Shown one piece after another: positions 10,835 to 43,093 of a stretch of 64,000 nt of DNA. The stretch is from an uncultured Chlamydiales bacterium (lineage in GTDB: Bacteria > Chlamydiota > Chlamydiia > Chlamydiales > Rhabdochlamydiaceae): assembly GCA_963700985.1 (NCBI GenBank), contig OY969554.1:1376001-1440000 (forward strand). Reading direction: 5' to 3'. How positions within the stretch are numbered: the stretch's first letter is position 1; each line of letters opens with the position of its first letter. The notes below the pieces were generated by a model, which saw only the letters and a list, made by a program, of their open reading frames with translations, was not told where the DNA came from and ran no database searches. A program made the translations under genes and the position numbers.

Positions 10835-13800
10835 ATGAGAAAATTAGGGTTTGATCCTCTTGCTTATTGGAAAAAGATCCTGTTCCGTTTTCTGCATTCT
10901 GCATTGCTTGTTTTCTTTCCAGTTACCCAAGCATTTGCCAGCGCACCAACACAACTTGACTCTGGCCAAACGGCCCACCTAAATACTCTACTCAATAATT
11001 ACGAAAAGTTCTTTGGCAAAGAAGTTCTACTCGCTAAGTCCGATTGTAAGGATTGTCCAAAACCCCCAAAGCAGGGCCCTCCTGGCCCACAAGGACCTCA
11101 AGGAATTCCAGGTCCCACCGGCCCAACTGGCGGCGGTGGCGGCGGGCCAGGTTATACTGGTCCAACTGGCCCTGCGGGTACTGATGGCATTACCGGTCCA
11201 ACAGGTCCGGCAGGTGGTGGCGTTGGTGCTACAGGTCCCGCAGGTCCCACTGGACCCTATGGCGGGCCTACCGGAAACGCAGGGCCAACAGGCTTACCTG
11301 GAGCCACTGGAGCCACTGGAGCCACTGGAGCCACTGGAGCCGCTGGTTTGACAGGTGATCCAGGCCCCGCTGGATCTACTGGTCCTACTGGCTCAATGGG
11401 TGATCCAGGTTCAACCGGTGCCACGGGCCCAACTGGTTCGAAGGGTGTCCCAGGCTCGACTGGATCTAGTGGTCCTACTGGCTCAACGGGTGATCCAGGT
11501 TCAACTGGCGCCACGGGCCCAACTGGTTCGACAGGCGATCCAGGCTCGACTGGATCTAGTGGTCCTACTGGCTCAACGGGTGATCCAGGTTCAACTGGCG
11601 CCACGGGCCCAACTGGTTCGAAGGGTGTCCCAGGCTCGACTGGATCTAGTGGTCCTACTGGCTCAACGGGTGATCCAGGTTCAACTGGCGCCACGGGCCC
11701 AACTGGTTCGACAGGCGACCCAGGCTCGACTGGATCTAGTGGTCCTACTGGCTCAACGGGTGATCCAGGTTCAACTGGCGCCACGGGCCCAACTGGTTCG
11801 ACAGGCGACCCAGGCTCGACTGGATCTAGTGGTCCTACTGGCTCAACTGGTGCCACAGGCCCAACAGGATCTACGGGCCCAACTGGTTCGACAGGCGACC
11901 CAGGCTCGACTGGATCTAGTGGTCCTACTGGCTCAACGGGTGCCACAGGCCCAACAGGATCTACGGGTTCCACAGGCTCAACAGGCTCAACTGGTAGTAC
12001 AGGAAGTACCGGACCTACTGGATCCACTGGCAGCACTGGGCCAACAGGCTCGACAGGTCCTACCGGTTCCACAGGGAGTACTGGACCCGCAGGTTCAACT
12101 GGATCTACAGGTCCTACTGGCGCGACGGGTTCTACAGGCTCAACAGGTGCAACTGGTAGTACAGGAAGTACCGGACCTACTGGATCCACTGGCAGCACTG
12201 GGCCAACAGGCTCGACAGGAAGTACTGGATCTACGGGTCCTACCGGTTCCACTGGAAGTACTGGACCCACAGGTGCAACTGGATCTACGGGTCCTACTGG
12301 CGCGACGGGTTCTACAGGCTCAACAGGTGCAACTGGTAGTACAGGAAGTACCGGACCTACTGGATCCACTGGCAGCACTGGGCCAACAGGCTCGACAGGA
12401 AGTACTGGATCTACGGGTCCTACCGGTTCCACTGGAAGTACTGGACCCACAGGTGCAACTGGATCTACGGGTCCTACTGGCGCGACGGGTTCTACAGGCT
12501 CAACAGGTGCAACTGGTAGTACAGGAAGTACCGGACCTACTGGATCCACTGGCAGCACTGGGCCAACAGGCTCGACAGGAAGTACTGGATCCACTGGATC
12601 CACTGGATCTACGGGTCCTACCGGTTCCACTGGAAGTACTGGACCCACAGGTGCAACTGGATCTACGGGTCCTACTGGCGCGACGGGTTCTACAGGCTCA
12701 ACAGGTGCAACTGGTAGTACAGGAAGTACCGGACCTACTGGATCCACTGGCAGCACTGGGCCAACAGGCTCGACAGGAAGTACTGGATCCACTGGATCCA
12801 CTGGATCTACGGGTCCTACCGGTTCCACTGGAAGTACTGGACCCACAGGTGCAACTGGATCTACGGGTCCTACTGGCGCGACGGGTTCTACAGGCTCAAC
12901 AGGCTCAACAGGTGCAACTGGTAGTACAGGAAGTACCGGACCTACTGGATCCACTGGCAGCACTGGGCCAACAGGCTCGACAGGAAGTACTGGATCCACT
13001 GGATCTACGGGTCCTACCGGTTCCACTGGAAGTACTGGACCCACAGGTGCAACTGGATCTACGGGTCCTACTGGCGCGACGGGTTCTACAGGCTCAACAG
13101 GTGCAACTGGTAGTACAGGAAGTACCGGACCTACTGGATCCACTGGCAGCACTGGGCCAACAGGCTCGACAGGAAGTACTGGATCCACTGGATCTACGGG
13201 TCCTACCGGTTCCACTGGAAGTACTGGACCCACGGGATCAACTGGATCTACGGGTCCTACTGGCGCGACGGGTTCTACAGGCTCAACAGGTGCAACTGGT
13301 AGTACAGGGAGTACTGGACCCACAGGTCCTACTGGCGCGACGGGCTCAACAGGTGCAACTGGTAGTACAGGAAGTACCGGACCTACTGGATCCACTGGCA
13401 GCACTGGGCCAACAGGCTCGACAGGTCCTACCGGTTCCACTGGAAGTACTGGACCCACGGGATCAACTGGATCTACGGGTCCTACTGGCTCAACAGGTGC
13501 AACTGGCAGTCCAGGATCTATTGGTAGCACGGGTCCAACTGGATCCAATGGTGCAACAGGCTCAATAGGGCCTACGGGTTCTACAGGTCCTACTGGCGCG
13601 ACGGGTTCTACAGGTGCAACCGGTTCCACAGGAAGTACTGGACCCACGGGATCAACTGGATCTACGGGTTCTACAGGCTCAACAGGGGCAACTGGTAGTA
13701 CAGGAAGTACCGGATCTACTGGATCCACTGGCAGCACTGGGCCAACAGGCTCGACAGGTCCAACCGGTTCCACAGGAAGTACTGGACCTACGGGATCAAC

Positions 13801-15145
13801 TGGATCTACGGGTCCTACTGGCTCAACAGGTGCAACTGGTAGTACAGGAAGTACTGGACCCACGGGATCAACTGGTTCGACAGGTCCTACTGGCGCGACG
13901 GGTTCTACAGGCTCAATAGGTAGCACTGGACCAACAGGCTCGACAGGTCCTACCGGTTCCACAGGAAGTACTGGACCCACAGGTTCAACTGGATCTACGG
14001 GTCCTACCGGTGCGACGGGGCCCACTGGTAGAACAGGTCCAACAGGTCCAACAGGTTCCACAGGAAGTACTGGATCTACAGGGTCTACTGGCGCGACGGG
14101 TGCAACTGGCAGTACAGGAAGTACCGGACCTACAGGATCCACTGGTTCGACAGGTCCTACCGGCTCAACAGGCTCGACAGGTTCAACTGGATCTACGGGT
14201 CCTACTGGCTCAACAGGTGCAACTGGTAGTACAGGATCTACAGGACCAACTGGCGCGACAGGTGCAACTGGCAGTACGGGAAGTACCGGACCTACAGGAT
14301 CCACTGGTTCGACAGGTCCTACCGGCTCAACAGGCTCGACAGGTTCAACTGGATCTACGGGTCCTACCGGTTCCACTGGAAGTACTGGACCCACAGGTTC
14401 AACTGGGTCTACAGGGCCTACTGGCTCAACAGGTGCAACTGGTAGTACAGGAAGTACCGGACCTACAGGATCCACTGGTTCGACAGGTCCTACCGGCTCA
14501 ACAGGCTCGACAGGTTCAACTGGATCTACGGGTCCTACTGGCGCGACAGGTGCAACTGGCAGTACGGGAAGTACCGGACCTACAGGATCCACTGGTTCGA
14601 CAGGTCCTACCGGTGCGACAGGCCACACCGGACCTACGGGTTCGACAGGTCCAACAGGTTCCACTGGTCCTACCGGCGTAACAGGACCCACGGGACCGCG
14701 GGGAGTTATGTCTCAGGATTTTGCTTGGATTTATCATATTAGCGGGACTGCAGAGACAGTAGCTGCTGGGGCGACCGTTATTCTAAACACTATTGCCAAT
14801 CAACCAGCGGGATCTAATATATCGCTGAATGCCGCTACAGGCGTAGTAACAGTTGCCTCCTCAGGTTTTTATCAAGTGTCTTATGGCATCCTTCAAGATG
14901 TCGCCTTAACAAATATTAAAGTCTCGCTACAAGTTAATGGTGCAATCCAAGCCAATCAGCAGTTTACTAGTAGCTTTGCTGGCGGTACTTTAACCATGCT
15001 AAGCTTAACAACCGTTGTGCATCTCACTGCAGCCTCTAATACCTTGCAAATTGTTAACAGTGGCGGCGCCGGCTGGACATTAAATAGTACCGATGCCTCT
15101 GTCACTGGAGTTTCATCATTTATGACAATTGTAAAGTTGCAATAG
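10835..15145 (+). CDS. Secreted collagen-like protein 1 (about 383 uninterrupted Gly-X-Y, mostly GST/GPT/GAT) with BclA/C1q-like C-terminal domain
   Basis: Signal peptide ending TQAFA, CKDC motif, GXY run 11264-14710, C-terminal beta domain (GFYQVSYG...SFMTIVKLQ). Confidence 0.9.
12121..12480 (+). repeat. Two identical 180-bp tandem units inside collagen 1; further variant copies to ~13.3 kb
   Basis: 12121-12300 is identical to 12301-12480. Confidence 0.9.
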
Positions 15146-15163
15146 GGATAAGAGGTTCATTTT

Positions 15164-42125: not shown

Positions 42126-42154
42126 GAAGAAGCATGATAGCTTCGAGCCACATT

Positions 42155-43093
42155 CTAGGGGCTTTTTTGGTAATTGGGGCCTCCGTTATCCGAAAGCGCT
42201 TTGATCTGTGTCGATACCACATCATTGTTTACTGTGTATAAACGAATTCCAGGAACTAGGGGCAGATCCATATCAAAAGGAAGGAAAATGTCGTATGCTT
42301 TGAAATACTCTAGAATTTTCCTCATGCCTTTGCGCCGCACTATGTAAGAATAGTTACCAAAACGGGCGCCAATACGTCTAAAAAAAGCGTCAATTTTTTC
42401 ATTCTTAGCAGCTTTTTTAGGTTTTAAAGGAGTGAAGTTAGGCCTCCACGCATAAGTTGTAGAGGGAACGTATCTTCCCTGCTGGTTTTTGGTGTCGCGA
42501 TCGGTAAATAAAACATCCCACCTATCCTTTCCAACTAGGGCATCGAGCTTATCAATAAAAGTAGAGATAAGATGGGGATCTCGAATGATGTCAATATCAT
42601 CCTCCATGATCCAAACCGTTTCATAGCCAGAATCATAAGCATCTTGAAGGATCGAAAGATGACTTAATGAAATACCCACCGCGCCTCTCGACATGCAATG
42701 GCAAAAATAGGTCCTTCCTAGCTTATTCACCATCTCATGATGGGGCTGACCATTTCCATTTGGCAGATAACAAGTTCCCATTTTTTCACTTGTCATTCCC
42801 CTAGCAAATTTAACACCGAGATCATTAAGAGCTTCTAATGAGAGCTCCCACCCATTAACGGCAGAAAAACGATGAGGATAGATTCCGTAAGGGGTTAACT
42901 GCTCTACGCAAGATGCAAACTTTTCAGGTCTCTGATCTAAATTGATCACATAAATAAAATCGATGTTTCGCATTGGGCGCACACCTGTCTTATGCTCCAC
43001 CGTTTTTAGGTGATCTTCAACACGAGCACTAAGATTTAGGAAACTAAAAATGCAGAGTAAAAACAACAATCGGAATAACATTTGTACCTTCAA
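42155..43093 (-). CDS. GT25 glycosyltransferase, signal peptide
   Basis: IYVINLDQRPEK, RFSAVNG, LSHL, IMEDD; close paralog of 39698-40627. Confidence 0.85.
   Translation of the reverse strand: MKVQMLFRLLFLLCIFSFLNLSARVEDHLKTVEHKTGVRPMRNIDFIYVINLDQRPEKFASCVEQLTPYGIYPHRFSAVNGWELSLEALNDLGVKFARGMTSEKMGTCYLPNGNGQPHHEMVNKLGRTYFCHCMSRGAVGISLSHLSILQDAYDSGYETVWIMEDDIDIIRDPHLISTFIDKLDALVGKDRWDVLFTDRDTKNQQGRYVPSTTYAWRPNFTPLKPKKAAKNEKIDAFFRRIGARFGNYSYIVRRKGMRKILEYFKAYDIFLPFDMDLPLVPGIRLYTVNNDVVSTQIKALSDNGGPNYQKSP

Follow-up and report, generated by a model that had tools for sequence, protein, structure and literature searches.

The window analysed here is a 64,000-nucleotide stretch of DNA from an uncultured Chlamydiales bacterium of the Rhabdochlamydiaceae (assembly GCA_963700985.1, contig OY969554.1, forward-strand positions 1,376,001 to 1,440,000). 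Its central feature is an island of approximately 32 kb (10835–43093) that encodes two long collagen-like proteins, three secreted beta-propeller proteins, an outer-membrane barrel and a large set of enzymes belonging to glycosyltransferase and methyltransferase families. The island comprises 23 non-overlapping open reading frames (ORFs) arranged in five strand blocks, and gene identities were assigned by Pfam searches and by all-against-all blastp. It is bounded by two core genes, ispF on the left (YgbB; 10105–10629, minus strand, Pfam YgbB 112 bits) and ddl on the right (43106–44209, minus strand, Pfam Dala_Dala_lig_C 228.7 bits), the location given in a preliminary description of the locus. 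The source genome is a single contig of 2,067,302 bp that is 99% complete. In a second genome of the same family (G057), ddl (373112–374200) and ispF (374209–374697) lie only 8 bp apart, the flanks are collinear with window positions 1081–10629 and 43106–46956 (ddl, murA), and no match to the collagen heads, propeller proteins or GT25 glycosyltransferases described below is present. The 32.5 kb between ispF and ddl represent a clean insertion or deletion between core genes.

Collagen-like proteins, propeller proteins and the barrel

The first collagen-like protein (10835–15145, plus strand; 1436 aa) matches Pfam Collagen with 553.6 bits, and the second (21681–24377, plus strand; 898 aa) with 275.9 bits. 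Both begin with a signal-peptide-like segment, share an N-terminal motif and end in a BclA/C1q-like head. The collagen region of the first protein (residues 81–1292) contains 403 G-X-Y triplets, 357 of which carry Thr at the Y position; they form four runs separated by three one-residue interruptions, and the commonest triplets are GST (204), GPT (97) and GAT (50). The second protein contains 223 triplets, 159 of them with Thr at Y. These are the only collagen genes in the genome, as all 43 Pfam Collagen matches fall in the two frames. Long ORFs also run through the other frames of both genes (e.g. 11257–14691, minus strand), but these are artefacts of the repeat composition and were rejected as genes. 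The collagen rise is approximately 2.8 angstroms per residue and the BclA stalk is reported to measure 37 nm (PMC12357932); at approximately 0.28–0.29 nm per residue, the predicted chlamydial stalks would be approximately 347 nm (collagen 1) and 193 nm (collagen 2) long, i.e. 5 to 9 times the length of the BclA stalk.

The heads of the two proteins, each of about 140 aa, are 42% identical to each other. A head profile constructed from 23 aligned sequences matches PDB 9H38 (E 2.4e-10), the C1q-like C-terminal head of F-BclA, which is described as a collagen-like tip fibrillum in B. thuringiensis (PMC12357932), as well as the BclA entries 3tyj, 2z5w, 2r6q, 3twi and 1wck (E 1.2e-4 to 2.8e-4). The head of collagen 2 alone matches Pfam BclA_C with an E value of 5e-7, which is below the gathering score. 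On profile comparison, the head is a divergent member of the BclA-C/C1q superfamily. The opposite end of the protein is not BclA-like. While BclA carries an exosporium leader that docks on ExsF/BxpB, no such leader is found in the chlamydial proteins, in which a Sec signal peptide gives way to a variable region and then to an invariant Cys. The Cys is present in all 14 of the complete N-termini (window and related loci), seven residues ahead of the first Gly and mostly in the context C-x-KPPKQ-G. Taken as proteins, the two collagens very probably are real secreted BclA-like fibres, and they match the two signal-peptide Gly-X-Thr collagens with BclA-like heads that the preliminary description had reported.

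As in the BclA group (PMC12357932), stalk length varies between relatives. Some relatives have much longer fibres or more of them: 778 triplets occur in a 2542-aa open frame of L010 (1945–9573), another open frame reaches 3314 aa (G299:C10:32315-32686), and one genome (G174:C33) has seven head matches, with frames of up to about 2000 aa. In three further loci (L002, L013 and L014) the collagen repeats are split over frames or contain runs of N, probably owing to assembly errors, and collagen counts from metagenome-assembled genomes (MAGs) are lower bounds given the probable misassembly of repeats. A short collagen-like ORF with 18 triplets and an unrelated C-terminal domain lies next to a distant GT92-like gene in a Parachlamydiales MAG (L064, 7668–8615).

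Between the two collagen genes, on the minus strand, lie three paralogous genes for secreted beta-propeller proteins: BP1 (16272–17888; 41% identity to its paralogues), BP2 (17971–19569) and BP3 (19706–21298; 56% identical to BP2). Each protein has about 530 aa and belongs to no Pfam family, and the propeller-protein profile gives nothing significant against PDB sequences (best E 0.085). An AlphaFold2 model of BP2, calculated from 22 sequences with a predicted local distance difference test (pLDDT) score of 89.6, has a seven-bladed propeller (residues ~22–438) followed by a C-terminal beta-sandwich. The top Foldseek matches of the model are Photorhabdus PLL/PHL lectins (E 2.5e-11, TMt 0.70; 14–16% identity), and several of the lectin structures hold bound O-methylated sugars. 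Binding of a methylated fibre glycan by the propeller proteins would be an attractive lead, but no more than that, given that WD40 and CylK propellers do at least as well in a second-look alignment (Z 27–29, as against ~25 for the lectins); the similarity reflects a common fold and is not evidence of a common function. The C-terminal beta-sandwich (~90 aa, profile positions 425–517) also recurs alone at the ends of many chlamydial ORFs of ~430–870 aa in many genomes, for example at 1305627–1305905 of the source contig, and appears to be a C-terminal module common to secreted proteins. In another genome of the same family (G259:C1:1957043-1963064), the propeller genes beside the collagen head are shortened or interrupted by internal stops (one TAG in one frame, five TGA and two TAA in another), and the module seems to be decaying there.

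The outer-membrane barrel (40920–42125, plus strand) is of the inverse-autotransporter type. It matches the 12-stranded beta-domain IAT_beta with 24.6 bits (cut-off 22.3), as do all eight barrel homologues (8/8, best E 4.4e-12), and it also matches the invasin barrel 4e1t (E 0.0019). However, intimin and invasin carry a C-terminal passenger, whereas the chlamydial protein ends (...NF) about 35 residues past the conserved barrel region, and Pfam found no further domain that could be a fused Ig-like or lectin passenger. The short C-terminal tail contains a Cys. It is a matter of speculation that this residue and the N-terminal Cys of the collagens could be joined by a disulfide, giving a 'split' inverse autotransporter. 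A complex prediction for barrel residues 125–401 with the collagen N-terminal region scored 0.21, against a mark of 0.32, and speaks neither for nor against binding. The barrel and propeller proteins stand where BclA systems have the exosporium basal layer.

Enzymes encoded by the island

The island contains approximately 15 enzyme genes, all but one of which encode a protein with a putative export signal (discussed below). Two GT92-like genes each sit directly 3' of a collagen gene: GT92 a (15164–16099, plus strand, Glyco_transf_92 70.9 bits), which belongs to a collagen-linked clade, and GT92 b (24394–25341, plus strand, 80.3 bits), the two products being 77% identical. Against PDB sequences, the GT92 proteins match GmaR only (4.4e-4). 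The next gene (25537–26739, plus strand) encodes a GT2 glycosyltransferase with TPR families (GT2 59.1 bits) that matches the solved structures of GmaR (E 1.6e-14) and SunS (E 3.3e-12). GmaR, which acts on Listeria flagellin, and SunS, which acts on sublancin, both glycosylate polypeptides. By virtue of this likeness, an initiating step on Thr/Ser would best be assigned to GT2-TPR and the GT92 clade. The same GT2 and TPR-like layout is found in GmaR and SunS, although these two enzymes are cytoplasmic and the chlamydial ones carry signal peptides.

Four GT25 domains are encoded, and all four GT25 genes of the genome lie within the island. One is fused to an FkbM-like piece (27754–29196, plus strand; GT25 28.4 bits, FkbM 27.5 bits) and is 52% identical to the GT25 at 39698–40627 (minus strand, 41.6 bits); the others are at 37363–38298 (minus strand, 45.8 bits) and at 42155–43093 (minus strand, 46.6 bits), the latter 12 bp downstream of ddl. 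All GT25 and GT92 genes exceed the Pfam gathering scores of 24 and 23, respectively. An acidic DxD-type motif (E161-D162-D163) in GT25 is invariant across 14 aligned sequences. Against PDB, the GT25 profile matches procollagen galactosyltransferase 1 (COLGALT1) only (E ~1e-7 over ~55 residues), a match that, at the level of sequence, shows family membership and not special kinship. COLGALT1 is a signal-bearing enzyme of the endoplasmic reticulum lumen that acts on collagen; it modifies hydroxylysine, however, and the island has no lysyl hydroxylase. In bacteria, GT25 is otherwise known from lipooligosaccharide (LOS) synthesis according to Pfam, while the GT25 orthologues of the island are signal-peptide-like in 10 of 10 cases and stand outside the cytoplasmic LOS context.

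Further putative glycan-active enzymes include a GT47/exostosin-like protein (34242–35741, minus strand; RXYLT1_C 38.3 bits, Exostosin below cut-off), which matches the chlorovirus A075L/exostosin structures 8avq/8asa/8q8i (E 1.7e-18); A075L is described as a proposed capsid-glycan xylosyltransferase (PMC9614988). A GH130-like beta-propeller protein of glycoside phosphorylase/transferase fold (30984–32072, minus strand; Glyco_hydro_130 35.7 bits) gave no match against PDB sequences. It adjoins a 722-aa protein that combines GT2 and TPR with a GH130-like C-terminal half (32077–34245, minus strand; Pfam TPR and weak GT2) and is paralogous to both GT2-TPR (6.9e-40) and the GH130-like protein (6.6e-8) by blastp.

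The putative methyltransferases comprise an FkbM-type enzyme (36524–37291, minus strand; Methyltransf_21 72.4 bits), Methyltransf_24 a, which resembles sugar O-methyltransferases (38308–38988, minus strand; 53.9 bits, RMNT_CmcI 25.1 bits), Methyltransf_24 b (38999–39685, minus strand; 69.2 bits), which is the sole enzyme without an export signal, and a weakly methyltransferase-like protein (26754–27773, plus strand; Methyltransf_24/25 E ~1e-3, below the cut-offs). A DUF1796 protein (30229–30978, plus strand; 47.1 bits) has orthologues in L006, L014 and L015. Two exported proteins belong to no Pfam family. For the first (29203–30204, plus strand), Atlas feature matches to two chlamydial clusters (0.94 and 0.93) and to a Nucleotid_trans cluster (0.92) provide a lead only towards a GT-A (nucleotide-diphospho-sugar transferase) fold; for the second (35725–36513, minus strand), there is a weak Atlas lead to Methyltransf_24 (0.87). 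The inventory of the preliminary description (two GT92-like, two GT2-TPR, four GT25 and one GT47-like gene, propeller domains of carbohydrate-active enzymes, several methyltransferases, three secreted beta-proteins and a barrel) was recovered in full by Pfam, blastp and the propeller model. Within the 23 island ORFs, Pfam searches (E <= 0.01) detected no flippase, polymerase, ligase/oligosaccharyltransferase or initiating phosphoglycosyltransferase, and no lipopolysaccharide (LPS) core genes.

Recurrence across Chlamydiota and the status of the island

The island genes, like the adjacent ispF and FAD-reductase genes, have their closest relatives in MAGs labelled Rhabdochlamydiaceae, Parachlamydiales or Chlamydiae, and three relatives labelled Verrucomicrobiae nest within the chlamydial clade. 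A TLC ATP/ADP transporter, a hallmark of energy parasitism in chlamydiae and rickettsiae, is encoded at 58149–59765 of the window (plus strand, 615.7 bits). The C-terminal domain of S-adenosylmethionine (SAM) synthetase (MetK) has no match in the source genome and is present in 10 of 10 bacterial control genomes, so that SAM must be imported and hence crosses the periplasm. A search for Chlam_OMP6 gave no match in the source genome nor in any control and so has no bearing on the assignment. The other data fit an obligately intracellular chlamydia that depends on imported SAM, and they agree with the earlier assignment of the locus to a chlamydia.

A scan for the GT92 pair, with one genome per species, yielded 80 loci. 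A run of at least 10 G-X-Y triplets was present in the fetched flank of 16 of the 19 loci whose GT92 shares 45–54% identity, as compared with 1 of the 61 more distant loci; the three exceptions among the 19 are L009, L016 and L018, two of which are short contigs. In 13 of the 19 loci, GT92 immediately follows the end of the collagen ORF, and 12 of the 19 contain the barrel gene. A quick maximum-likelihood tree was built from 96 GT92-like rows, 20 of which have a collagen within 3 kb. Of these 20, 19 group in a single 23-row clade with a Shimodaira–Hasegawa-like approximate likelihood ratio test (SH-aLRT) value of 99; among the 73 rows outside the clade, only 1 is collagen-adjacent. At least 15 Chlamydiota MAG loci repeat the combination of collagen, GT92, beta-propeller, GT2-TPR and barrel genes. 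The recurring neighbourhood includes one to three propeller proteins, GT2-TPR (59–70% identity), the barrel, the GH130-like and GT2-TPR-GH130-like proteins, the Methyltransf_24 pair, GT25, FkbM and DUF1796.

An even sample of 300 Chlamydiota genomes was also surveyed. The head profile matches 58 of them, distributed over 36 of 165 genera, including 25 of 61 genomes in the family of the window and none in two other families (0/29 and 0/26), the second of which we infer to be Chlamydiaceae from its one genus of 24–25 species. A full-length propeller protein (E < 1e-90) occurs in 23 genomes, 21 of which also have the head, and head and propeller are often located on the same contig within a few kb (e.g. 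G257, G031, G131, G092 and G112).

The window contains no tRNA gene anywhere, and Pfam detects no integrase in the island. No repeats were found inside either boundary stretch, repeats common to both boundaries not having been searched. The G+C content resembles that of the flanks except in the collagen repeats, where peaks reach 0.58–0.60. The lack of mobility marks, together with the patchy distribution in the phylum, fits an old locus that has frequently been lost rather than a recent transfer. A recent viral origin was rejected as well: viral contigs yielded one GT92 locus (26% identity) and 11 GT25 loci (best 36%). An MFS transporter (8705–9940, plus strand) and a 368-aa protein without Pfam family (44423–45529, plus strand) adjoin the island; since neither has a counterpart in G057, the variable region may be slightly larger than 10835–43093.

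Export signals and a proposed fibre coat

Export signals on almost every enzyme of the island, missed by the preliminary description, were scored by a simple rule that calls for an uncharged 10-residue window whose mean hydropathy is >= 1.9, with its start among the first 22 residues and a non-negative charge ahead of it. By this rule, 20 of the 23 island ORFs are signal-peptide-like, as opposed to 384 of 1666 ORFs (23%) elsewhere in the genome; of the three that the rule misses, 30984–32072 and 37363–38298 are signal-peptide-like by eye and the methyltransferase 38999–39685 is not. The feature recurs in orthologues, alternative start codons being permitted: GT92 21/22, GT2-TPR 11/11 (11 loci), GT25 10/10 (as noted above), GH130-like 6/7, GT2-TPR-GH130-like 5/5, Methyltransf_24 a 5/5, FkbM 4/4 and DUF1796 3/3, with Methyltransf_24 b again apart (1/4). 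Among distant GT92 homologues, 43 of 72 are signal-peptide-like overall, mostly so in chlamydiae, while those of Gastranaerophilales, Bacteroidota and spirochaetes mostly have no signal by eye. Nearly all island enzymes appear to carry conserved Sec-type signals, suggesting that modification takes place outside the cytoplasm. Provided that the signals are real, glycosyltransferases that use nucleotide sugars (GT-A and GT-B) and SAM-dependent methyltransferases sit outside the cytoplasm, together with the collagens.

Alternatively, the hydrophobic N-terminal segments may be membrane anchors or remain unused, with the collagens glycosylated in the cytoplasm before export, as in the Bacillus mother cell. 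To our knowledge, all known bacterial protein O-glycosyltransferases of the Leloir type act in the cytoplasm, nucleotide-sugar genes of the cytoplasm are encoded by the genome itself, and the methyltransferase at 38999–39685 has no signal in the window or in three of its four orthologues. On the other hand, in all enzymes but this one the hydrophobic core is short by eye (~10–15 residues) and is followed by an Ala-x-Ala-like site (VNA/QV, LHA/EQ, LQA/EI and LSA/RV, the slash marking the site), as is typical of cleaved signal peptides and not of 20-residue anchors. The positive N-terminus would, moreover, place the catalytic domain outside whether the segment is cleaved or serves as an anchor, and we know of no way in which Sec could export a folded, glycosylated collagen trimer. 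Cytoplasmic glycosylation of this kind is regarded as quite unlikely.

The converse claim, that these enzymes actually work outside the cytoplasm, is put forward tentatively and is in our view doubtful. A precedent is provided by C. trachomatis, in which UDP-glucose is reported to be imported into the inclusion lumen, where it serves secreted GlgA as a substrate (PMC4829429), i.e. a chlamydial Leloir enzyme outside the cytoplasm acting on a host-supplied nucleotide sugar. The glycogen enzymes differ from those of the island in that they are described in the same source as type 3 secreted proteins without a signal peptide that make a polysaccharide. Imported SAM and the lumenal UDP-glucose precedent make extracytoplasmic enzymes less odd for a chlamydia. 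A literature search whose coverage left out subscription journals and supplements found no paper on periplasmic Leloir enzymes. The notion that donors must be host-derived because the genome cannot make nucleotide sugars was discarded, as the genome holds 4 NTP_transferase and 19 Epimerase matches. It is conceivable, though improbable enough to be treated as a working idea, that a Golgi-like line operates in the periplasm or inclusion lumen, in which Sec-exported glycosyltransferases, GH130-like enzymes and methyltransferases would modify the exported fibres (and other acceptors elsewhere) using host SAM, nucleotide sugars and sugar-1-phosphates, and in which the barrel would hold the fibre via the conserved cysteines in a 'split' type Ve arrangement.

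Considered as a whole, the island is probably a conserved accessory locus of environmental chlamydiae that makes long trimeric BclA-like fibres, most likely with O-linked, partly methylated glycans on their Thr/Ser-rich stalks. The fibres would trimerize through the C-terminal head, and GT92 and/or GT2-TPR would begin O-glycosylation on Thr/Ser. The glycan would then be lengthened by the GT25, GT47-like and GH130-like enzymes and capped by O-methylation through the FkbM and Methyltransf_24 enzymes, this extension and methylation block being presumably a general exported chlamydial glycan toolkit that is applied here to fibres. The N-terminal end of the fibre would be held at the outer membrane, with the barrel and/or the propeller proteins as candidate anchors. 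The predicted outcome is a nap of ~190 and 350 nm on the infectious particle, which may serve attachment, uptake or protection.

Several observations weigh against such an interpretation. Glycosylation, glycan methylation, trimerization, surface display and expression are all predictions from the genes. The single heads all fall under the Pfam BclA_C gathering score, with 9 of 23 reaching E <= 0.1, and the sole head model, calculated from two sequences, is poor (pLDDT 54.8). Export was judged by a crude hydrophobicity criterion, to which 23% of the ORFs elsewhere in the genome also conform, and not by SignalP. Exported GT-A enzymes have no known periplasmic supply of donors, while the genome makes nucleotide sugars in the cytoplasm. 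The full-length propeller protein is missing from 37 of the 58 head-positive genomes and is thus not obligatory. The GT25 profile (E <= 1e-40) matches 76 of the 300 genomes, 28 with the head and 48 without it, so the enzyme block may serve another acceptor in this genome as well. Furthermore, three of four inspected GT25 regions from head-negative genomes (L093, L094 and L095) are collagen-free clusters of exported enzymes, in which GT25 is accompanied by Methyltransf_24, GH130-like, FkbM, distant GT92-like and DUF1796 genes and no G-X-Y run occurs in up to 20 kb; the fourth region contains a lone GT25.

The last two observations support the view that two separate systems are adjacent in the island, the collagen, GT92, propeller, GT2-TPR and barrel genes forming one module, and the block of GT25, GT47-like, GH130-like and methyltransferase genes building some other exported glycan (for example a decoration of LOS or of other envelope proteins) and not acting on the collagens. 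The Pfam description of GT25 as an LPS biosynthesis family is in line with it. Yet all GT25 genes of the source genome lie inside the island, and GT25 shares a fetched locus of 9–21 kb with the collagen or its GT92 in at least six cases (L006, L007, L011, L014, L015 and L019). Head and GT25 are positively associated over the 300 genomes (28 with both, 194 with neither), although the Fisher tests of the association between head, GT25 and propeller are inflated, as related genomes are not independent. LOS glycosyltransferases, moreover, act on the cytoplasmic face, whereas the island enzymes carry signal peptides. Two unconnected systems are therefore considered unlikely, though they are the alternative to which we give the most weight.

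The occurrence of the enzyme block in head-less genomes nevertheless means that the system is modular and not self-contained: a collagen-specific core (collagen, the GT92 clade, propeller, GT2-TPR and barrel) stands beside a wider exported glycan toolkit. The preliminary description had called the system self-contained, and on this point it fails, given that 48 of the 76 GT25-positive genomes are head-less, that collagen-free clusters exist and that the genes for nucleotide-sugar synthesis are located in other parts of the genome (with 4 matches to NTP_transferase and 19 to Epimerase, the strong ones mostly at 1.59–1.72 Mb). Its expectation that collagen and enzyme genes would travel together was borne out for collagen, GT92, propeller, GT2-TPR and barrel, but not for the GT25/methyltransferase/GH130-like block, which is also found in collagen-free form. 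The earlier interpretation as a whole is partly supported.

A further possibility is that the collagens and enzymes are released as effectors into the inclusion or host cell, where they would mimic or remodel the host matrix and glycans, and that no coat is formed. The Sec signals across the components of the island would be compatible with release, and several of the families are mainly eukaryote- or virus-like, namely GT92, GT25 (COLGALT1) and GT47 (A075L), as is a nearby exported NAGPA-like protein. However, the cluster includes a conserved outer-membrane barrel gene, heads of BclA/C1q architecture belong to anchored fibres, and there is close linkage between the GT92 genes and the collagens presumed to be their substrate. 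A purely host-directed role is accordingly held to be very improbable.

A glycosylated fibre coat would have relatives of a known kind, namely the BclA-type glycosylated collagen naps on spores and the collagens with viral glycosyltransferases on giant viruses. In C. difficile, the collagen gene of BclA3 has a dedicated neighbouring glycosyltransferase, SgtA (PMC7157674). The island shares with the Bacillus and Clostridium spore proteins BclA, F-BclA, L-BclA and BclA3 (PMC12357932; PMC7157674) the G-X-Thr stalk, the C1q/BclA-C-like head and the glycosyltransferase gene beside the collagen gene. It differs in that the host is Gram-negative, obligately intracellular and non-spore-forming, and in that BclA systems have one or few enzyme genes while the island has about 15, whose products are exported. 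Giant viruses form protist-ingested particles with collagen-like proteins, virus-encoded glycosyltransferases and sugar methyltransferases (PMC9614988). The island resembles them (Mimivirus L71 and others, L230) in combining collagens with glycosyltransferases and methyltransferases, and its GT47-like protein is similar to A075L. Unlike Mimivirus, however, it lacks a lysyl hydroxylase/glucosyltransferase of the L230 type, and the likely acceptor is Thr/Ser. What is new is the Gram-negative, obligately intracellular host, together with the length of the stalks, the Cys motif that replaces an exosporium leader, the association with a barrel and propeller proteins, the number of enzymes encoded and their export signals.

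The preliminary description knew of no such system in chlamydiae, and within the literature coverage stated above no description of chlamydial collagen-like proteins, their glycosyltransferases or this locus was found, nor does any word beginning 'chlamyd' occur in a 2022 review of collagen-like proteins in prokaryotes. The infectious chlamydial particle is usually pictured as having a bare, disulfide-cross-linked envelope, and its width is about equal to a fibre length of 190–350 nm. If the proposal is true, fibres would change views on the attachment, protist uptake and environmental survival of environmental chlamydiae, and these particles would join spores and giant viruses as a third independent case of an ingested infectious particle clad in glycosylated collagen-like fibres. 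The export signals make directly testable the long-standing assumption that bacterial Leloir enzymes work only in the cytoplasm.

Several genes outside the island also concern sugars. A second sugar region of the source contig (1587000–1721000) contains three of the four NTP_transferase matches and most of the strong Epimerase/dehydratase matches. Two tandem GT92-like genes with signal-peptide-like N-termini lie at 1604471–1606050 of the contig, and another such gene lies at 166460–167374. Within the window, a NAGPA-like phosphodiester glycosidase with a signal-peptide-like start (55740–56861, plus strand, 133 bits) is a further exported sugar-active enzyme; the NAGPA family is familiar mainly from lysosomal targeting in eukaryotes. 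A Schlafen AlbA_2/HATPase_c_4 protein (48037–49482, plus strand) and a BRO-N protein (54870–55718, plus strand) are encoded downstream of the island, in the midst of housekeeping genes.

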